DNA of 34,102 nucleotides from a virus (taxonomy: Duplodnaviria > Heunggongvirae > Uroviricota > Caudoviricetes): the IMG/VR virus record IMGVR_UViG_2778261316_000008. The stretch is one strand, 5' to 3'. Positions within the stretch are counted from its first letter, which is position 1. The number at the start of each line of letters is the position of its first letter. Position numbers and translations under genes: made by a program. Under the pieces are notes generated by a model, which saw nothing but the letters and a program-made list of their open reading frames with translations, was not told where the DNA came from and did no database searches. This document shows positions 18,761 to 28,793 of the stretch, one piece after another.

Positions 18761-19714
18761 ATGTCTGACTATTTAAAGGGTAAGCGCGTCGTTGACCCGG
18801 TGCTGACCAGCATCGCACGCGGTTATAAAAATGCCGCGTTCATCGGCGAACGCATCTTCCCCATTGTCCTTACCGATAAGGAAGGTGTGACCGTGCCGAC
18901 CTTCGGTAAATCCGCTTTTGTGGAGTACGACACCGAGCGTGCCGTGGGGGCTGACAGTAACGTTCTGGTGCGCGAGAAAACCGGCAAGCTGGACCTGGTT
19001 CTCAACGAGCACGATCTGGCTGCGCCGGTGGACTATCGCGAGCAGGCGGAGTCGATGTTCAACGAAGAGGCCAAAGCCATTCGCCGTGTGACGAGCGGCG
19101 TCAACCTGAAGCGCGAACTGTATGCGGCCCGTCTGGCCCAGGACAAAAACGTCTATCGCGCGGCTAACGTCAAAGCGCTGGCTGCGGCTGACCGCTGGGG
19201 CGGTGGTAAGGGTGACCCGATTGGCGTCATTGAAGGCGGGATTGAGGCGGTACGTAACGCCACCGGCCTGCGTCCGAACCTGATGACCATGGGGGCAAGC
19301 GTCATGTCGCTGCTGAAGTTCCACCCGGCGATTCAGGCCGCGATTGGAGCCAACGAGCGCAAGCGTATCACCATCGAAATTCTGAAAGACCTTTTCCAGC
19401 TGGAAGATGTGGCGATCGGCGAGCCGGTCTCCATGGCCTCCATGAAAGACGCGCAGAACAAGGACAAAGTCCCGACCGATATCTGGGGTGACAACCTGAT
19501 GCTGCATTACGTCGGCAAACCCCAGCCAGGCACCGACAGCGCCGACGAAAACGAGCCGTCATTCGGTTACACCCTGCGCCGTAAAGGGATGCCGGTGGCG
19601 GATAAATACGACGGCGTCGGCGGCAAGGTGAAGTACTGCCGTTATACCGATATCTACAAAGTCGCCGTGGTCGGTGGCGATGCCGGGTATCTCATCACCA
19701 ACATTGTGAAATAA
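18761..19714 (+). CDS. major head (capsid) protein (Mu T-like)
   Basis: 317 aa, strong RBS AAGGAGAG, position after protease/scaffold. Confidence 0.75.
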   Translation: MSDYLKGKRVVDPVLTSIARGYKNAAFIGERIFPIVLTDKEGVTVPTFGKSAFVEYDTERAVGADSNVLVREKTGKLDLVLNEHDLAAPVDYREQAESMFNEEAKAIRRVTSGVNLKRELYAARLAQDKNVYRAANVKALAAADRWGGGKGDPIGVIEGGIEAVRNATGLRPNLMTMGASVMSLLKFHPAIQAAIGANERKRITIEILKDLFQLEDVAIGEPVSMASMKDAQNKDKVPTDIWGDNLMLHYVGKPQPGTDSADENEPSFGYTLRRKGMPVADKYDGVGGKVKYCRYTDIYKVAVVGGDAGYLITNIVK

Positions 19715-20993: not shown

Positions 20994-21244
20994 TGAAAGA
21001 ATACCGCTATTCCGGCCCGGCCAGCGGCGTCACGCTGTCGGACGGAACCGAAATCCTGCTCTGGCCGGGGAAGAATGTTTCCCTGCCGGAGGAGCATGAC
21101 TATGTGAAGGTACTGGTGGCGCTGAAGCATCTGACACCGGTATCTGAAGAGACTAAACCCGCCAGCACACCGGTTGTGCAGTCACCAAAGCGCAGGAACG
21201 CCGGCGACAACGATGTGAAAACGGAGGACTCCCATGGCAGCTAA
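20993..21244 (+). CDS. hypothetical protein
   Basis: 83 aa from ATG 20993 (GTG 20990 alternative); overlaps flanking genes. Confidence 0.45.
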   Translation: MKEYRYSGPASGVTLSDGTEILLWPGKNVSLPEEHDYVKVLVALKHLTPVSEETKPASTPVVQSPKRRNAGDNDVKTEDSHGS

Positions 21245-22661
21245 CTATCTGCATGGCGTCGAAACCATTGAGGTGGAAAACGGTGCCCGCCCGGTAAAAA
21301 CGGTGAAGTCTGCCGTCATTGGCCTGATTGGTACCGCCCCGATGGGGGACGTCAATACGCTGGTGCAGTGCCTGTCTGAGAAAGATGCAGCGGCGTTTGG
21401 CAGCCAGCTCACCGGTTTTACCATTCCGCAGGCGCTGGATGCGATCTACGACCATGGGGCAGGCACCGTTCTGGTCATTAACGTGCTTGATCCGGCTGTG
21501 CATAAAACCGCTGTGGCCGATGAAGATGTAACGTTCGACAAGGCGACGGGCAAGGCACAGCTGGCTAATCCGGTGGTCGCGCAGCTGGTACTGAAACCGG
21601 ACAGCGATGGCCAGCCTTATGTGGAAGGTCAGGACTACTCGCTTGATGCACAGACCGGAGTGATTACCAACCTTGGTAAGAGCATTGCCGCAGATGCAAC
21701 GGTGAAGGCCAGCTATAACTATGCTGATCCAACTAAAGTCACCCCGGCTGATATCATCGGTGCCGTTAACGCTGCGGGCAACCGTACCGGCATGAAGCTG
21801 CTTAACGACAGCTTCAACCTGTTTGGCTACTTCGCAAAAATACTGATTGCCCCGGTCTTCTGCACCCAGAACAGCGTCTCGGTTGAGCTTATCGCCATGG
21901 CTGAGAAGCTGGGCGCGGTGACCTACATCGACGCGCCGATTGGTACCACTTTTGCGCAGGCTCTGGCGGGGCGTGGCCCGGAAGGCACCATTAACTTCAA
22001 CACCAGCTCCGACCGCGTCCGTCTGTGCTACCCGCACGTCAAGGTGTACGACGCGGCCACCAACAGCGAACGGCTGGAGCCGCTGAGCCAGCGTGCTGCA
22101 GGTCTGCGTGCCAAAGTCGACCTGGACAAGGGCTACTGGTGGTCGTCCTCCAACCAGGAAATTCTGGGTATCACCGGCGTGGAGCGCCAGCTGTCGGCAA
22201 TGATTGACGACCCGCAGAGCGAGGTGAACCTGCTCAACGAACAGGGCATCACCACGGTCTTCAGCAGCTACGGCAGCGGCCTGCGTCTGTGGGGCAACCG
22301 TATGGCGGCATGGCCAACGGTCACCCATATGCGCAACTTTGAGAACGTTCGCCGTACCGGTGATGTGATCAACGAGTCCCTGCGTTACTTCAGCCAGCAG
22401 TACATCGACATGCCGATTACCCAAGCGCTGATTGATGCGCTGACGGAGTCGGTCAACGCCTACGGTCGCAAGCTGATTGGCGACGGTGCGCTGCTGGGCT
22501 TCAGCTGCTGGTTTGATCCGGCCCGCAACGAAGAGACGGAGCTTGCCGCCGGTCACCTGTTGCTGAGCTACAAATACACGCCACCACCACCGCTGGAGCG
22601 ACTGACGTTTGAGACCGAGATCACCTCGGAATATCTGTTAACCCTGAAGGGGAATAGCTGA
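21234..22661 (+). CDS. tail sheath protein (Mu L-like)
   Basis: 475 aa, MAANYLHGVETIEV... N-terminus typical of contractile sheath; GGAGGA RBS. Confidence 0.85.
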   Translation: MAANYLHGVETIEVENGARPVKTVKSAVIGLIGTAPMGDVNTLVQCLSEKDAAAFGSQLTGFTIPQALDAIYDHGAGTVLVINVLDPAVHKTAVADEDVTFDKATGKAQLANPVVAQLVLKPDSDGQPYVEGQDYSLDAQTGVITNLGKSIAADATVKASYNYADPTKVTPADIIGAVNAAGNRTGMKLLNDSFNLFGYFAKILIAPVFCTQNSVSVELIAMAEKLGAVTYIDAPIGTTFAQALAGRGPEGTINFNTSSDRVRLCYPHVKVYDAATNSERLEPLSQRAAGLRAKVDLDKGYWWSSSNQEILGITGVERQLSAMIDDPQSEVNLLNEQGITTVFSSYGSGLRLWGNRMAAWPTVTHMRNFENVRRTGDVINESLRYFSQQYIDMPITQALIDALTESVNAYGRKLIGDGALLGFSCWFDPARNEETELAAGHLLLSYKYTPPPPLERLTFETEITSEYLLTLKGNS

Positions 22662-23182
22662 TGGCAAAGATTGAGATCAACCGCATCACGAATGCCAACA
22701 TCTACCTGGATGGCGCTAACCTGCTGGGCCGGGCCGAGGAGGTCAAACTCCCGGACGTCTCCATGACCATGCAGGAGCATAAGGCGCTGGGGATGGTGGG
22801 CAAAGTGGAACTCCCGGCAGGCTTCGACAAGCTGGAGGGTGAGATCAAGTGGAACAGCTTTTACCGCGACGCGATGCTGTCTGCTGCGAACCCGTATAAG
22901 TCGCTGGCGCTGCAGTGCCGTTCCAGCGTCCAGCGCTACAGTTCGCAGGGGCTGATTGACGAAATCCCGCTGGTCACATTCCTGACGATCATGTTCAAGA
23001 AGAACCCGCTGGGGACGTTCAAACAGCACGAGAACGCCGAGTTCTCTAGCAGCTTCACCTGCACGTACATCAAGCAGGTACTGGATGGTGAAGAGCTGCT
23101 GGAGCTGGACTATCTGGCCAACATCTTCCGAGTCGGCGGCGTTGACCAGTTGACTGACTACCGCATCAATATCGGGGGCTGA
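22661..23182 (+). CDS. tail tube protein (Mu M-like)
   Basis: 173 aa directly after sheath with ATGA overlap. Confidence 0.8.
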   Translation: MAKIEINRITNANIYLDGANLLGRAEEVKLPDVSMTMQEHKALGMVGKVELPAGFDKLEGEIKWNSFYRDAMLSAANPYKSLALQCRSSVQRYSSQGLIDEIPLVTFLTIMFKKNPLGTFKQHENAEFSSSFTCTYIKQVLDGEELLELDYLANIFRVGGVDQLTDYRINIGG

Positions 23183-23184
23183 CG

Positions 23185-23466
23185 GTGACCGTCGAGATTG
23201 AAGATAAAGGCGGGAACTGTGGTTCGATTGGCATGGGAAATGGTACGTGGTTTACCATCCTTGATATTCCGGGGGTGGAAAACCTTTTTAATACCCAGAA
23301 AACCAATGACCCGATTGACTGCACCCGCTCTAAAGCACGGAAGCTCGCTGACCTGATTGAGGCATGGGAGCCACCTGACCACTGGTTCACCGGCATCGGC
23401 AAATCTGAAGGAAAGGCGCTTCTTATCGCCTTCCTGCGTAACTGCAAAGGCTTTCGCACTCACTGA
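23185..23466 (+). CDS. hypothetical protein (possible moron)
   Basis: 93 aa from GTG at 23185; AT-richer than neighbours; followed by terminator hairpin. Confidence 0.35.
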   Translation: MTVEIEDKGGNCGSIGMGNGTWFTILDIPGVENLFNTQKTNDPIDCTRSKARKLADLIEAWEPPDHWFTGIGKSEGKALLIAFLRNCKGFRTH

Positions 23467-23473
23467 TATCACA

Positions 23474-23496
23474 GGGGCTTCGGCCCCTTTCTTCTT
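23474..23496 (+). terminator. rho-independent terminator
   Basis: GGGGC-TTCG-GCCCC stem-loop followed by TTTCTTCTT. Confidence 0.6.
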
Positions 23497-23501
23497 AATC
23501 C

Positions 23502-23539
23502 CCTTTAATATCCGTCACGTCCACCTCCAGACATACTGC
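23502..23539 (+). promoter_or_regulatory. candidate activator-dependent late promoter element (copy 1)
   Basis: CCTTTAATATCCG-N18-ATACTGC; same bipartite block with identical spacing recurs at 29318-29355. Confidence 0.45.
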
Positions 23540-23564
23540 TCTGAACTTACACAGGAGCACGATC

Positions 23565-23879
23565 ATGTCACAGACCCAATCCGATACTTTTAAGCTGTCT
23601 TACCCCTTCACCACCGCAGCAGGCACCAGAGTTGAGCAGGTTGAACTGAAACGCCTGACGGTCAAAGACCTGAAGCAGGTGCGCAAAATCAGTAAAGACC
23701 CGGCTGACTGGGACGAACCGCTCATTGCCCGTAGCACCGGTATTCTCCCCGAAGACCTCGATAACATGGATCTTACCGATTACATGGAGCTGCAGAAACG
23801 ATTTCAGCAAGTCACTGGGCTGGGCAAGAGCGACGAAAACGCTGATGCAGGCGCAGGGGCTGCTGGCGAGGTGGTTTAG
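23565..23879 (+). CDS. tail assembly chaperone
   Basis: 104 aa, upstream of tape measure; acidic C-terminus; overlapping +1-frame ORF follows. Confidence 0.6.
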   Translation: MSQTQSDTFKLSYPFTTAAGTRVEQVELKRLTVKDLKQVRKISKDPADWDEPLIARSTGILPEDLDNMDLTDYMELQKRFQQVTGLGKSDENADAGAGAAGEVV

Positions 23880-23982
23880 ATTTCAGCCGGGGGAGATTGA
23901 TGCCCTCGATACTGACGATCTGGAGATGTGGCTGGAGCAGGCTGAAGAGCAAATCAAAAGCGAGTTCGGCGACAATCAGTAA
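23725..23982 (+). CDS. putative frameshift-extension ORF of tail assembly chaperone
   Basis: ORF in the +1 frame overlapping the 3' end of the chaperone and ending 90 bp before the tape measure; conserved chaperone/tape-measure arrangement. Confidence 0.35.
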   Translation: MPVAPVFSPKTSITWILPITWSCRNDFSKSLGWARATKTLMQAQGLLARWFRFQPGEIDALDTDDLEMWLEQAEEQIKSEFGDNQ

Positions 23983-24074
23983 CGACTCATCACTTAACAG
24001 CCGCCCCTCGCGGCTGTTCTGCATGGCTCTCAGACATTTTCCTTCCGTTTTTCCGCTTTCAGAGGATAACAACC

Positions 24075-26540
24075 GTGGCCAGTGAATTTTCAGTCGGCGT
24101 CATTATTGGCGGCATTGTCGGGAGCAGCTTCCGCTCAGCCGTCAGTGGCACCCGACGCGCCCTAGATTCCCTGGGCGATACATCGCGCCGCCTGCAGGAA
24201 CGCCAGAATGCCTTAACTCGTGCAACTGAACGTTATGGCCAGTTAGGCTCTTCCCGGATGCAGCGCCTCAACAGCGAACTGCTGCGGGTAAGCCGCACAA
24301 TGGAGCAAATTGAACGCCAGCAGCGCCGTCTGTCAGCAGTATCAGCCACCAGTGACGCGCTGAAAGCTAACCGCATGGCGCTCTATGGCCAGGGAGCAGA
24401 GACTTATGGTATCGCCCGAACGCTGGGCGCACCGGTCATGGCCTCTGTCAAACAATATTCATCGTTTGAATCCCAGCTACGCGATATCAGTGTCACCGGT
24501 GATCTGGATTCAAGGCAGGAACAGGCCATCGGTACTGCCATTCGTCGGGCATCCCTGCAGGTCAATCAGCTCCAGGAATCTCTGTTGAGCGGCGTTGGTC
24601 AACTGGTTGCCGATGGCATGAATCCGCAGCAGGCAGCGACCTTTGCCGGGATGCTCGGTAAAGCGGCCACGGCCACCAAAGCAGATATGACTGACCTCGC
24701 AAAAATGACCTACGCCTTTAGCGATGCGCTGAAAATTACCGATGCCAAAGAGCTGGAGCAGGCGTTTGGGATTGCGGCAACCGGGGCCAAGCTAGGCTCG
24801 TTTGAGCTGAAGGATATGGCGAAAGCGTTACCCGGTATGGCCAAAGCCTTCGCTGCACGTGGTATTTACGGCAAAGACGCCATAACCCAGATCGTAGCCA
24901 GTCTGGAAGTGGGTAAAGGCAGCGGCTCAGCGGAAGAGGCCGTCACTAATATGTCAAACTGGCTGGCGGCAATGGGACGCGGAGATACCACGCAGAAATA
25001 CGCTAAGGCTGGCGTGGATTACCAGGGATCAATGCAAAATTATGTAGCCCAGGGGTTCTCTCAATATGAAGCCTCCCTGATGATTGCCAACCGGTTTATC
25101 GACGGTAAAGGCAAGGCATTTGTGCAGCAATGGAAGGCGGCAGGCTCAAGAGGCGATCAGGAAGGCCAGCAGAAGCTGATGGAGTCCTTCGGACTGGCGG
25201 AAGTCTTTACCGATATCCAGACCGTGAACCATCTACTGTCTATGCGTCAGGGCTGGGATAAGTACCAATCTAACAAGCAGGAAATGAACACTCCCTCTGC
25301 AATGTCTACGCTGGACAAGGATGCAGCGAAACAAAATGATACGCTCGAAGGACGTTGGCGCAGAACGCAGATTGGGTTTAACGACTCGGCCATTAGCATC
25401 GGAGAATCATTACGTCCGGCGTTGATCCAGCTGGGGGAAACATTCATCCCCTTAATGAACAGCGTTGGAAAATGGATTGCGGCTAATCCGCAACTCGTGA
25501 GCGGCACAATTCAAGTGATTGGCGCATTACTTGCGTTCAAGATGGCAACCATCGGCCTCAAGCTCGGGCTGAATCTCCTTATTTCACCTTTCGTCAACGT
25601 CTGGAAAAATGCCGTGCTCCTGCGGGCCAACTGGCTTCGCCTGACACTCGCGCTGGGTGAAGGCGGCAAACTTCGCTGGCTGGTGACCGGCTTCAGCTCC
25701 GTCGCCAGAGGAGCCAGAACACTGGGTGGTGTGCTGTCAGGTGGGCTGGTTCGCGGCATTATGATCGCCGGGCGTGCCGTTCTCTGGATTGGGCGGGCAT
25801 TGCTGATGAATCCCATTGGTCTTGCTATCACCGCCGTCGCGGCGGCGGCTTATCTTATTTATCGTAACTGGGGGGCTGTCAGCAGTTGGTTCAAACAGCG
25901 CTGGGCTGACATTAAAGAGGCTTTTAACGGCGGTATCGTGGGGATTGGTAAGCTGCTGATTAACTGGTCGCCGGTTGGTCTGCTCTATAAAGCCTTTGCG
26001 GCTGCGCTGAAATATCTCGGCGTTGATCTGCCCGCGAAGTTCACTGACTTCGGTGGCCATCTTATCGACGGGCTGATAAACGGCATCAAAAACAAATGGG
26101 AGTCGCTCAAAACCACCGTCACAGATATGGGTGACAGTGTCGGCGGCTGGTTCAAGGAAAAGCTGGGTATCCATTCGCCGAGCCGCGTGTTTATGGGCTT
26201 TGGTGACAACATCGCGCAGGGTGCCGCTATCGGCCTGCAGCGTACCACACCACTGGCAGCGCTCGCCGGACAACGCCTGGCAACAGAGATGACTCCCGAT
26301 GTTCCCCGTATCCCGTCGCCGGAAATCATGGCAGCGGGATATTCAGGTCGTGGCGCAGTTGCAACTGGCGGCGGAACATCTGGCGGTATCCAGGTCAGCT
26401 TTAATCCTCAGTTTTTCCTCAATGGCAAAGAAACCGCAGCGCCTGCCGGACTGACCGGCGCACTGAATATGAGCCTGCATGAACTGGAGAAAATGCTGGA
26501 GCGTCTGCTGGCTCAGAAACAACGTCGGGGGTACGAATAA
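24075..26540 (+). CDS. tail tape measure protein
   Basis: 821 aa, GTG start after AGAGGA, coiled-coil N-terminus, hydrophobic segments mid-protein. Confidence 0.85.
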   Translation: MASEFSVGVIIGGIVGSSFRSAVSGTRRALDSLGDTSRRLQERQNALTRATERYGQLGSSRMQRLNSELLRVSRTMEQIERQQRRLSAVSATSDALKANRMALYGQGAETYGIARTLGAPVMASVKQYSSFESQLRDISVTGDLDSRQEQAIGTAIRRASLQVNQLQESLLSGVGQLVADGMNPQQAATFAGMLGKAATATKADMTDLAKMTYAFSDALKITDAKELEQAFGIAATGAKLGSFELKDMAKALPGMAKAFAARGIYGKDAITQIVASLEVGKGSGSAEEAVTNMSNWLAAMGRGDTTQKYAKAGVDYQGSMQNYVAQGFSQYEASLMIANRFIDGKGKAFVQQWKAAGSRGDQEGQQKLMESFGLAEVFTDIQTVNHLLSMRQGWDKYQSNKQEMNTPSAMSTLDKDAAKQNDTLEGRWRRTQIGFNDSAISIGESLRPALIQLGETFIPLMNSVGKWIAANPQLVSGTIQVIGALLAFKMATIGLKLGLNLLISPFVNVWKNAVLLRANWLRLTLALGEGGKLRWLVTGFSSVARGARTLGGVLSGGLVRGIMIAGRAVLWIGRALLMNPIGLAITAVAAAAYLIYRNWGAVSSWFKQRWADIKEAFNGGIVGIGKLLINWSPVGLLYKAFAAALKYLGVDLPAKFTDFGGHLIDGLINGIKNKWESLKTTVTDMGDSVGGWFKEKLGIHSPSRVFMGFGDNIAQGAAIGLQRTTPLAALAGQRLATEMTPDVPRIPSPEIMAAGYSGRGAVATGGGTSGGIQVSFNPQFFLNGKETAAPAGLTGALNMSLHELEKMLERLLAQKQRRGYE

Positions 26541-27424
26541 TGTTTGCGGTACTGGGTGATATTGAGTTTGAACTGATTACCTACTGGGACGGCTTTGAGG
26601 CCACTTTCGGTGTCGATTATGCGGAACATGCCCGCATAGAGGGTAAGCCCGGCCTGCAGTTCGTCGGCGACAAGCTGGACGAAATCCAGATAAGCCTGGT
26701 CTTCCATCAGCATTATTGTGTGCCCGACGTGGAGCTGGCGAGACTGAGAACGGCCATGAAAGCCCATCAGGCGCTGGCACTGGTTTTCGGCAACGGTGAC
26801 TATCGCGGCTGGTTTGTGATTACCGACGTGACCGCGACCAGCGAGCAGACCGACAGCACAGGCAACGTGCTGGCCGTCAATGCCACCGCATCTCTCCGGG
26901 AGTACATCGGCGACCCGAAGAACCCGCTACAGCCTCCTGCGATACGCACGCAGGTTCCCGGCGTCGGGGCGGTCTCCGGTGCCGTACCTTCTCCCTCCGG
27001 GGTGGCGCAGTACGTTCGCGACGGCGTCAACTATGCCAAACAGGCGCAGTCTGTTCTCCAGACCACCATCAGCGCCGTTCGGGTGGCGCAGAAAATGAAG
27101 GATAACCCCGCCGTCGCGCTGACCCGCGTGCCGGGGCTGATGAGCGGACTGGGCAACGTGTCCGGGGCGTTAGGCCAGAGCGTTCCGGCATTCAATGCGC
27201 TCTCTGAATCCATGCCTGATGCCATCAGTCTGGCCAGAGCCACCAGCGATGCGGCCACGTATGTACAACAGGCACAGTCTTCGCTGAGCGGCGTGGACGG
27301 CAGCAATATCGCGGCAGCGCTGGATGCCGTTTCCGGGCAGCTTAACTCCGCCAGCACCACCTTCACTCGTATGTCGCCGGGGTTAAGCACCATGGCAGCT
27401 AAAATTCTGGCGAGGAGTGTGTGA
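26540..27424 (+). CDS. DNA circularisation protein (Mu N-like)
   Basis: 294 aa immediately after tape measure (TAATG overlap). Confidence 0.65.
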   Translation: MFAVLGDIEFELITYWDGFEATFGVDYAEHARIEGKPGLQFVGDKLDEIQISLVFHQHYCVPDVELARLRTAMKAHQALALVFGNGDYRGWFVITDVTATSEQTDSTGNVLAVNATASLREYIGDPKNPLQPPAIRTQVPGVGAVSGAVPSPSGVAQYVRDGVNYAKQAQSVLQTTISAVRVAQKMKDNPAVALTRVPGLMSGLGNVSGALGQSVPAFNALSESMPDAISLARATSDAATYVQQAQSSLSGVDGSNIAAALDAVSGQLNSASTTFTRMSPGLSTMAAKILARSV

Positions 27425-27636
27425 TGTTTCTTGAACATGTTACCCGTGACGGAGAGCGCTGGGACTCTCTGGCATGGCAGTACTACGGCGACCCACTGGG
27501 CTATCCCCGGATAATTGCCGCCAATCCGCACGTGGCCATTACGCCGGTGCTGCCCTCCGGGCTGTTGTTACTGATCCCGGTTATCGAGGCTGAAGAAGCC
27601 ACCACAGAAGAGGATATTGCCCCATGGCTGAGATAA
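27424..27636 (+). CDS. tail protein X-like (gpX family)
   Basis: 70 aa, WDSLAWQYYGDP motif typical of P2 gpX-like proteins. Confidence 0.6.
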   Translation: MFLEHVTRDGERWDSLAWQYYGDPLGYPRIIAANPHVAITPVLPSGLLLLIPVIEAEEATTEEDIAPWLR

Positions 27637-28793
27637 ACAGCACTGCACAGGTCGCATCAGCGTTAACCGGCGTCAGCGATGTTCTGAGTCCGGTGTTCAC
27701 GCTGTGGTATCTGCAGAAGAACATCACCACCGATATCGCCCCCTATGTCACCCGCGTAACCTACAGCGATAACATCAAAAGCGAGTCCGATACCATTGAG
27801 GTGGAGCTGGACGACACCGATGGCCGCTGGCTGGATAAGTGGTATCCGGGCAAGGGTGACACGCTGACGCTGAAAATGGGTTATCAGGGCGAGAAGCTGC
27901 TGTCCTGTGGTACGTTCTCGATAGACGAGATCGAGGTGAGTTCGCCCGCGTCCGTTGTCGCTATCCGGGGCGTGGCCACGTCGGTCAACAACGCCCTGCG
28001 GACAAAATCCAGTCGTGGTTTCGAGAGCACCACGCTGGCGGCTATAGCCGGACGGATTGCCAAAAAGCATCAGCTGAAGCTGGTTGGCAGTATTGAGTCC
28101 ATCAAAATTGACCGGGTGACCCAGTATGCTGAAACGGACGTGGGCTTCCTGCGTCGACTGGCCAGCGAGTATGGTTATGCCGTGAAAGTGGTCAGCGACC
28201 AGCTGATTTTCTCTCATCTGGCCACGCTGCGCGATCAGGAGCCGGTAAAACAGTTGAAGCCACAGGATGTGGCCAGCTTTTCCCTGCGTGACACCATCAA
28301 CCGCGTCTACAAATCCGCAAAGGTAAAACACCAGAAGAGCAGCGATAAAAAGCTGATCGTCTACGAAGCTGATGGCGGTACCAGCGAAAGCGACAAACAA
28401 ACCAAAGGCGGTAAGGTCACCAGTGCCGACTCACTGAAGGTCAACAGCCGCGTCAGTGATCCGGACAGCGCCCGGATTAAAGCAGATTCGGCGCTGGCCA
28501 GGCATAACGAATACCAGCAGAACGGCTCGCTGTCGCTGATGGGGACGCCTCAGTTGACTGCAGGCAACAAAATTGAACTGGTGGGTTTTGGTCAGTTATC
28601 CGGGCCATGGCTGATAACTACTGCCCGCCATGCGTTTGACCGTAACAGCGGCTACATCACCGAACTGGAAGTGGCACGAGGGCCGGTTACGCAGGGCAAA
28701 GCGAAGAAAGGTAAAAAGACCGGAAAAACCCAGACGCTGACCGTCTATAAACCGGACGGCAGCACGTCCACGGTAATAAAGGAGAAAAAATAA
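27624..28793 (+). CDS. tail/baseplate hub protein (Mu P-like, late control D family)
   Basis: 389 aa; position between gpX-like and spike. Confidence 0.75.
   Translation: MAEINSTAQVASALTGVSDVLSPVFTLWYLQKNITTDIAPYVTRVTYSDNIKSESDTIEVELDDTDGRWLDKWYPGKGDTLTLKMGYQGEKLLSCGTFSIDEIEVSSPASVVAIRGVATSVNNALRTKSSRGFESTTLAAIAGRIAKKHQLKLVGSIESIKIDRVTQYAETDVGFLRRLASEYGYAVKVVSDQLIFSHLATLRDQEPVKQLKPQDVASFSLRDTINRVYKSAKVKHQKSSDKKLIVYEADGGTSESDKQTKGGKVTSADSLKVNSRVSDPDSARIKADSALARHNEYQQNGSLSLMGTPQLTAGNKIELVGFGQLSGPWLITTARHAFDRNSGYITELEVARGPVTQGKAKKGKKTGKTQTLTVYKPDGSTSTVIKEKK

Follow-up and report, generated by a model that had tools for sequence, protein, structure and literature searches.

Frameshifting in tail chaperone genes is among the most conserved recoding events of phages, and its +1 sites are hard to spot and mostly unannotated. 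A locus in the IMG/VR virus record IMGVR_UViG_2778261316_000008 (Caudoviricetes) raises the question of how a second reading frame that overlaps such a gene is translated. This stretch of 34,102 nt, hereafter called the window, contains the tail assembly chaperone gene E (0 frame; 23565–23879, plus strand), which codes for 104 amino acids (aa) from an ATG start. It is overlapped by a second open reading frame (ORF) of 85 aa with a TTG start (23725–23982, plus strand), which lies in the +1 frame because the distance between the two starts is 1 mod 3 (23725 − 23565 = 160). Comparison with about 190 relatives from four lineages (enteric, Ralstonia, Burkholderia BcepMu, and Pseudomonas), with a profile scan built from five sequences for distant members, makes it probable that a programmed +1 ribosomal frameshift at a UUU_C tetranucleotide yields a longer form of the chaperone, the E-E' fusion.

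Arrangement of the Overlapping Reading Frames

A sequence-only reading of the window had described a 104-aa chaperone ORF overlapped over about 155 nt by a +1 ORF that extends some 100 nt further and ends shortly before the tape measure gene. This geometry is accurate: the overlap comprises 155 nt (23725–23879), the second ORF extends 103 nt past E, and a gap of 92 nt separates its stop codon from the start of the tape measure gene at 24075. The identity of E as a chaperone is indicated by its match to Pfam Phage_TAC_7 (PF10109; P2 E, Mu gp41, gp14) over aa 8–84 (model positions 1–78 of 79; E = 1.8e-22), which at 79.6 bits against a cut-off of 25 is above the gathering threshold. An overlapping ORF pair between the tube and tape measure genes is the arrangement of the lambda G/GT and P2 E/E+E' type, here with one extra small ORF (23185–23466) intervening. 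The same reading had noticed no slippery heptamer, and indeed no X_XXY_YYZ sequence is present in any phase of E. Since the second ORF occupies the +1 frame, a −1 heptamer is not expected; ribosomes would have to move by +1 instead of the usual −1.

The Second ORF as a Coding Region

By itself, the openness of the +1 frame is within chance; its conservation at the protein level is beyond chance. From 23851 to approximately 23975, the differences among 57 unique close relatives are almost confined to third positions of the +1 frame, and a tree-based count for 23851–23876 found 94% of the substitutions to be synonymous in this frame (26% expected). Where the stop codon of E is located, the relatives have TAG, CAG, or CCG in the 0 frame, and the +1-frame codon over it is AGA, AGG, or CGG, all of which specify Arg. 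The coding part of the second ORF, designated E' (23806–23982, plus strand), consists of 58 codons followed by the TAA stop at 23980–23982, encodes SKSLGWARATKTLMQAQGLLARWFRFQPGEIDALDTDDLEMWLEQAEEQIKSEFGDNQ, and matches phrog_8286 at 3e-32. Across the lineages the +1 product can be aligned from the slip codon on, with invariant F1, W7, L21, P29, E31, L35, W43, and I51 and the general pattern F-x(2-5)-W-[LVAW]-...-L-...-L-L-A-R-W-F-R-F-Q-P-[GS]-E-I. The Trp codon at W7 of this alignment (TGG 23821–23823, plus strand; residue 86 of the predicted fusion) has zero entropy in 68 unique sequences and is invariant in all four lineages, although it is located upstream of every plausible internal start.

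The C-terminal portion of E' contains a P2 GpE-like (E', "T-like") domain (23863–23961, plus strand; fusion residues 100–132), which corresponds to positions 4–36 of 37 in the Pfam model Phage_P2_GpE. This model was found in 8 of 14 lineage representatives at E ≤ 0.1 (best 6.4e-6), and a profile of the +1 products aligned with P2 E' in hhalign over 34 columns (probability 81%, E = 1.3e-5). The corresponding hhalign comparison of the E profile with P2 E was uninformative; E was compared with P2 E through Pfam model coordinates. NCBIfam contained no match for E, E', or the fusion, although PGAP labels an identical protein "GpE family", and no match was found among the PDB sequences.

The conservation of E' bears on two explanations that dispense with a frameshift. 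Firstly, the +1 ORF could be unexpressed, either as a remnant in decay or as a side effect of the base composition of E. The prophage family does include degraded copies with truncated loci, and many indel variants of the E-E' region exist among assemblies. Nevertheless, the strong purifying selection on the +1 frame in four lineages contradicts a remnant, the +1 product is homologous to P2 E', and both intact prophages and isolated phages retain the ORF just 5' of the tape measure gene, all of which renders this explanation very improbable.

Secondly, E' might be a separately translated small protein, of 45 aa if started at ATG 23845, or started at CTG 23842. In line with this possibility, a CDS of its own, named "GpE family phage tail protein", is predicted by PGAP at this locus and in further E. 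coli genomes, a PHROGs family of such short ORFs exists (phrog_8286), and 23842–23844 is CTG, TTG, or ATG in the E. coli-type set. However, the downstream ORF is conserved as a protein without a conserved start or ribosome-binding site of its own: ATG 23845 is replaced by ACG, ATT, ACA, or AAA in relatives, no Shine-Dalgarno sequence is conserved upstream of the E' starts, and 23829–23842 is hypervariable. Purifying selection on the +1 frame begins well 5' of any candidate start, and it precedes, as does the invariant Trp codon at 23821–23823, every start that could be considered. Moreover, from the position of the relatives' +1 stop (23773) to 23815 the +1 frame of the window is devoid of ATG, GTG, and TTG, and the homologous P2 E' is produced solely as a fusion (RefSeq annotation NC_001895). 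Separate translation of E' is thus regarded as quite unlikely. The proposal of the sequence-only reading that the two ORFs yield a frameshift fusion appears well founded on comparative grounds, namely the conservation of frame, the lack of a conserved start, and the homology to P2 E'.

The Proposed Site of the Frameshift

The proposed +1 frameshift cassette is CGA UUU CAG (23799–23807, plus strand), with the slip tetranucleotide UUU_C at 23802–23805. A 0-frame UUU followed by a pyrimidine, which is documented as +1 shift-prone in bacteria in the form UUU_Y (PMC5009743), is thus found in phase as TTT_C within the overlap; it is a conserved in-phase slippery sequence, which is no canonical −1 heptamer. 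Positions 23799–23806 are invariant in 68 unique enteric sequences save for A or G at 23801, and in every +1-type locus examined the homologous Phe codon is TTT and is followed by C. The surrounding codons differ between the lineages, with CGA/CGG UUU CAG/CAA/CAU in enterics, CGA UUU CUG in Ralstonia-type loci, UCC/GCC/UCU UUU CGC/CGU in Burkholderia-type loci, and GUG/ACG UUU CGG/CAA in Pseudomonas-type loci. In the GC-rich loci, TTT accounts for only about 28% of the Phe codons in flanking ORFs, yet it is always present at the slip Phe; the remaining Phe codons within E are mostly TTC.

Tree-based substitution counts reveal that the selected frame switches from 0 to +1 at this Phe codon in four separately analysed groups. 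Upstream of TTT, 59–77% of the substitutions are synonymous in the 0 frame (expected approximately 23%) and 10–16% in the +1 frame. Between TTTC and the LLARW motif, the 0-frame synonymous share drops to 19–30%, which is not significant, and the +1-frame share rises to 38–51% (p = 1e-4 for the E. coli type, 9e-10 for the Salmonella type, 1e-4 for the Ralstonia type, and 6e-3 for the Burkholderia type). Beyond the LLARW stretch, 49–94% of the substitutions are synonymous in the +1 frame. Stop codons in relatives bracket the site: the +1 frame is closed by a TGA 9–11 nt 5' of TTT in all Ralstonia-type and most Pseudomonas-type loci, and the 0 frame ends 27 nt after TTT in L170 and L174 (window equivalent 23829–23831) and at window position 23835 in L050 and L051. 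Because of these stop codons the shift site is boxed to the equivalent of 23794–23828. The overlap contains four candidates for +1 re-pairing, of which AAA_C (23796), UUU_C (23802), and GGG_C (23817) are inside the box, and UUU_C is the sole re-pairing site conserved in all lineages.

The switch of frame has a counterpart in gene E itself, where 0-frame purifying selection is limited to residues 1–80 (to 23804) and the 24-aa tail after F80 is apparently unconstrained. In the core of E, 69% of the substitutions are synonymous in the 0 frame, compared with 30% and 22% after 23805, and the position of the E stop codon drifts among relatives (23829, 23835, 23877, 23892, and 23898). Functional E may effectively end at F80.

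These data also bear on the possibility that ribosomes shift further downstream, close to the 3' end of E, as the sequence-only reading had implied; the favoured site is located approximately 75 nt upstream of the E stop codon. Near-stop motifs of several types are all present in the window: GGG_G for a +1 shift (23856–23859), GC_GCA for −2 re-pairing of tRNA-Ala (23851–23855), a prfB-like GUU_UAG (23874–23879) preceded by GAGGUG (23868–23873), and a Mu-like run of five G residues (G5 run; 23889–23893). Mu gene 41 likewise has a G5 run (CGG GGG CGA, L087 3958–3966), where its published −2 shift would fit, and GAGGTG 23868–23873 is a six-base match to the Shine-Dalgarno consensus. In relatives, however, GGG_G becomes GGG_C, GGG_T, or GGG_A, or AAT GGC in Salmonella-type loci, GCGCA becomes GCACA or GCTCA, the TAG stop of E is CCG, CAG, or TCG in many cases, and the G5 run, which in the window lies 3' of the 0-frame stop, reads CCTGGGG, CCAGGGG, or CCCAGT elsewhere. 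The GAGGTG sequence is accounted for by the conserved +1 codons GCG AGG TGG (Ala-Arg-Trp). Furthermore, all near-stop sites fall within or beyond the stretch that is already selected in the +1 frame, and all are 3' of the 0-frame stops of L170/L174 (23829) and L050/L051 (23835). A shift near the 3' end of E is therefore considered unlikely.

Three signals were evaluated and rejected on these grounds or others. For a prfB-type shift, GAGGTG-GTT-TAG is present at 23868–23879, but the TAG is not conserved and the site is in the +1-selected region. A Mu-type −2 shift would have re-pairing options only at AGC (23829), AAC (23838), and GCA (23853), none of which is conserved; at the place of UUU_C, no re-pairing option exists for a −2 shift. 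The invariant T-G-A at 23843–23845, which forms a −1-frame stop in 57 of 57 close relatives, is explained by the +1 codons (C/T/A)TG A.. and varies in the wider set.

A change of frame could in principle also arise before translation, by transcriptional slippage of RNA polymerase. This process requires long homopolymer runs, typically of at least 7 A or T. It has precedents in certain genes of phages and of type III secretion (PMC5009743). In the window the conserved element is just TTT, and no longer run exists in 23776–23850, so that slippage of the polymerase is an extremely improbable source of the fusion.

Several observations weigh against a programmed +1 shift at UUU_C. In the E. coli-type set alone, the +1-frame signal directly after the site (23806–23826) is modest, with 40% synonymous substitutions versus 24% expected (p = 0.04), and the substitution counts are not fully independent because sequences inside a lineage are related. 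The match of the E' domain in the window to Pfam Phage_P2_GpE (PF06528), at 14.6–17.6 bits, is under the gathering cut-off of 23. The 0-frame A-site codon is CAG or CAA in enterics, CUG in Ralstonia-type, CGC or CGU in Burkholderia-type, and CGG in Pseudomonas-type loci; all of these begin with C and none is clearly rare in the host, and as the CAG of the window is not rare in E. coli, the usual stimulus of a slow A site is not evident. No Shine-Dalgarno-like element is conserved at prfB-like spacing, and Rfam yielded no match. The sequence-only reading had suggested scanning 23725–23879 for a slippery sequence and downstream structure. UUU_C is inside this range, but conserved downstream RNA structure was not found, since RNAalifold on 26 diverse sequences predicted seven pairs without covariation; single-sequence folds downstream of the site had z-scores from +0.3 to −2.5.

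Proposed Mechanism and Predicted Product

Gene E would encode the abundant tail assembly chaperone, and a minority of the ribosomes with peptidyl-tRNA-Phe on UUU 23802–23804 would slip one base onto UUC 23803–23805 and read the +1 frame to the TAA at 23980–23982. The anticodon of tRNA-Phe (GAA) forms a G-U wobble with UUU and a G-C pair with UUC. As this tRNA pairs with both codons, a one-base forward slide on UUU_C keeps three pairs. The predicted fusion joins the codons of 23565–23804 to those of 23806–23979 (SKSLGWARATKTLMQAQGLLARWFRFQPGEIDALDTDDLEMWLEQAEEQIKSEFGDNQ), and has 138 aa and a mass of approximately 15 kDa. It would be composed of E residues 1–80 (...ELQKRF) and a 58-aa E' tail, namely a linker of about 19 aa with the invariant Trp and a P2 GpE-like domain of about 35 aa. 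Tryptic peptides predicted for the +1 product and encoded upstream of ATG 23845 are SLGWAR and ATKTLMQAQGLLAR, and the junction would read LQKRF/SKSLGW.

If they behave like lambda gpG/gpGT and P2 gpE/gpE+E', E and the fusion would both bind the tape measure protein via their shared N-terminal domain. The rare fusion would in addition recruit tube subunits via its C-terminal domain, and, again as in those systems, neither protein would stay in the virion. The efficiency of the shift is probably a few per cent, because no stimulator was found. Such a low value would fit the known requirement that the short form greatly outnumber the fusion; in lambda the ratio of the two is 30:1 (PMC5009743).

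Probable Direction of the Shift in Relatives

The +1 arrangement is widespread. E' is in the +1 frame in 79 of 80 close relatives from IMG/VR, the exception (L080) being due to a 1-nt deletion, and in most of 25 genomes of other Enterobacterales, including Mixta, Pantoea, Brenneria, Lonsdalea, Lelliottia, Dryocola, Superficieibacter, Phytobacter, and others. It is also found in a Salmonella prophage and further Salmonella-type loci, in BcepMu and 14 relatives, in a Pseudomonas phage and 10 relatives, and in a Ralstonia phage and 12 relatives. More distant family members carry E' in the −1 frame, namely Pasteurella phage AFS-2018a, which has the canonical A_AAG_GGA, Vibrio phage Valp1, P2, and L160 (IMGVR_UViG_3300020156_000080). 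L160 has AGU UUU UUC, that is, a U_UUU_UUC T-run, where the +1 clade has UUU_C. The loci L160, L091, and L092 belong to the same chaperone family and have E' in the −1 frame.

This distribution suggests that the direction of frameshifting changed within the chaperone family. We slightly favour a general scheme for Phage_TAC_7 chaperones in which the shift is anchored at the same Phe codon or codons at the end of the chaperone domain and its direction has flipped in evolution: P2 and L160 would use a −1 shift on U_UUU_UUN and the BcepMu-like clade a stimulator-less +1 shift on UUU_C, and the last 24 or so codons of E would represent an unselected tail with a drifting stop codon.

A few relatives (L080, L103, and L108) encode E-E' as in-frame fusions, which result from single-base deletions at differing places: 15 nt 5' of TTT in L108 (Apirhabdus), and in the G5/CC run in L080 and L103 (Erwinia tracheiphila). 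The natural 138-aa fused ORFs in databases (P0001–P0010) were considered as pointers to the junction and rejected, as their junctions are scattered over an A-run, GGG, and the G5 run. Natural in-frame fusions of E and E' look like mutations, indels, or assembly errors and are uninformative on the site; some of them may instead reflect decay or be viable "fusion-only" variants.

Annotation and Significance

In the identical locus of E. coli Ecol_542, RefSeq/PGAP predicts a 45-aa CDS named "GpE family phage tail protein" (WP_001148841.1), which corresponds to 23845–23982 (plus strand) of the window. This CDS is most likely merely the 3' part of the frameshift product. For BcepMu (L003, NC_005882, 24602–25363), RefSeq describes gp42, the +1 ORF equivalent to E', as "lambda G-like" and gp43 as its slippage product. 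Our comparison favours gp41 (Phage_TAC_7) and gp42 as the real pair, with a +1 slippage from the former into the latter at UCC UUU CGC.

Frameshifting of tail chaperones, the +1 and −2 types included, is already well known, and the case in the window is a further member of this group and no new kind of biology. What seem to be new are, for the BcepMu-like clade, a +1 direction of the shift and UUU_C as its place, which appear to be absent from the annotation and the accessible literature (Summer et al., 2004 and Xu et al., 2004 are outside that scope), and the mismatch with both the gp42/gp43 pair in the BcepMu RefSeq record and the free-standing GpE gene predicted by PGAP. If the direction of the shift has indeed flipped within the family, hundreds of prophages have been given a spurious independent "GpE family" gene by gene callers. 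Annotation would be corrected for a prophage family in approximately 12% of the complete E. coli genomes, and probably for BcepMu too. The combination of a switch in the selected frame with stop-codon bracketing in relatives constitutes a reusable comparative method, and the locus would provide one more natural case from bacteria of a UUU_Y +1 site without an evident stimulator. It is also a clean test system, because a single synonymous change of TTT to TTC should abolish the fusion (UUC_C cannot re-pair).

The Tail Module and Its Prophage

The window carries the tail module of a BcepMu-like (Bcepmuvirus) transposable prophage of Enterobacterales with a P2-type contractile tail. The DNA matches a prophage of E. 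coli Ecol_542 with 100% identity and shares 99.8% identity with "Klebsiella phage KP12 clone KP12_2" and 83% with Escherichia phage PhiKM, a Bcepmuvirus by classification, and at the end of the tube gene a DNA-level match persists to Burkholderia phage BcepMu. A match to a 600-nt region is present in 639 of 5426 complete E. coli genomes (approximately 12%). The KP12_2 record (OM835952.1) is filed under Vequintavirinae, yet it is 99.8% identical over 1.2 kb (window 23100–24300); the probable source of the record is an induced prophage that was co-purified, or else a clone with the wrong label.

Upstream of E, the sheath gene (21234–22661) is followed by the gene for the tail tube FII (22661–23182, plus strand; Pfam Phage_tube, 1.1e-54). 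By analogy with lambda gpGT, the tube protein is the presumed partner bound by the E' domain. Between tube and E is an ORF of 93 aa (23185–23466) of unassigned function, which matches phrog_1239 (unknown function, 1.5e-45) and weakly Pfam DUF7739; it is hypothetical in all records and has no counterpart at that position in BcepMu. The tape measure protein, the presumed client of the chaperone pair, is encoded at 24075–26540 (plus strand) from a GTG start (821 aa; Pfam PhageMin_Tail), and is followed by gpU (26540–27424), gpX (27421–27636), and gpD (27624–28793).

Two hairpins are located in the intergenic regions around the chaperone genes. A terminator-like hairpin at 23473–23488 (AGGGGCTTCGGCCCCT, then TTCTTCTTAA) separates the 93-aa ORF from the chaperone gene, within what is expected to be a single late tail operon, and could attenuate transcription between sheath/tube and E-E'-T. 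A second hairpin (23997–24019, ACAGCCGC-loop-GCGGCTGT) is located in the 92-nt gap from the E' stop to the tape measure start. In relatives its stem is conserved and its loop variable (CCCT, TACT, CACA, CAGT, and others), and some of them have a T-rich tract, GGCTGCTTTCTTCC, after the equivalent hairpin. This element is possibly an attenuator or contributes to RNA stability.

Comparison with Known Systems

Tail chaperone frameshifts in the −1, −2, and +1 directions are all known (PMC5009743). In lambda, an abundant chaperone (gpG) and a rare frameshifted form (gpGT) both act on the tape measure protein and are absent from virions (PMC5009743). The window proteins have no sequence relationship with this pair, and the lambda tail is non-contractile. 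The −1 shift of lambda takes place on G_GGA_AAG.

With respect to the slip sequence, the closest parallels are found outside tail genes. The YopN-TyeA fusion of Yersinia is likely a natural use of a UUU_Y site, and PA-X of influenza A is made by a +1 shift on UCC_UUU_CGU without an evident stimulator and at very low efficiency (PMC5009743). In these two cases and in argI of E. coli, as proposed for the window, tRNA-Phe re-pairs from UUU to UUC at low efficiency, without a stop codon or an evident RNA stimulator, and the Burkholderia relatives with UCC_UUU_CGC come particularly close to PA-X. The genes are unrelated, however, and a slow A-site codon is thought to help in those systems, whereas the A site in the window is the common CAG.

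Among transposable phages, Mu resembles the window in having an extension ORF in the +1/−2 frame upstream of the tape measure gene and a weak match to Phage_TAC_7. For its tail chaperone gene 41, a −2 frameshift is stated in the part of PMC5009743 that cites Xu, Hendrix and Duda (2004); its location on the G5 run is our inference from the Mu sequence. The G5 run allows −2 re-pairing of tRNA-Gly in Mu, whereas the window is without a conserved −2 site; Mu has TTC, not TTT_C, at the comparable Phe, and gp41 belongs chiefly to another Pfam family, Gp41_Mu. BcepMu, the type species of the genus, has a homologous tail module (gp41-gp43), in which E' lies in the +1 frame and the Phe codon equivalent to that of the slip site is set in UCC UUU CGC.

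The best-matching counterpart in architecture is the gpE/gpE+E' pair in the FETUD tail operon of P2. It too is located between the genes for the tube (FII) and the tape measure (T), and has the same order of Pfam domains, Phage_TAC_7 (residues 8–83 in the window fusion, 7–85 in P2 E+E') followed by Phage_P2_GpE (residues 100–132 and 104–139, respectively). The proteins are also similar in size (E, 104 aa in the window versus 91 aa in P2; fusion, 138 versus 142 aa), and the linker of 16–18 aa that precedes the GpE domain conforms to the P2 arrangement, although identity detectable by BLAST is confined to a 23-residue stretch of E'. P2 differs in its slip sequence, as it employs a −1 shift on the T-run of GGT TTT TTG (annotated at position 19685 of NC_001895) where the window would use a +1 shift on UUU_C without a T-run. 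The Phe at the shift site (F80 in the window) nevertheless corresponds approximately to Phage_TAC_7 model position 74 in the window and 77 in P2, in both cases at the C-terminal end of the domain. Judged from these alignments, P2 and the phage of the window would change frame at practically the same place in the protein, in opposite directions.

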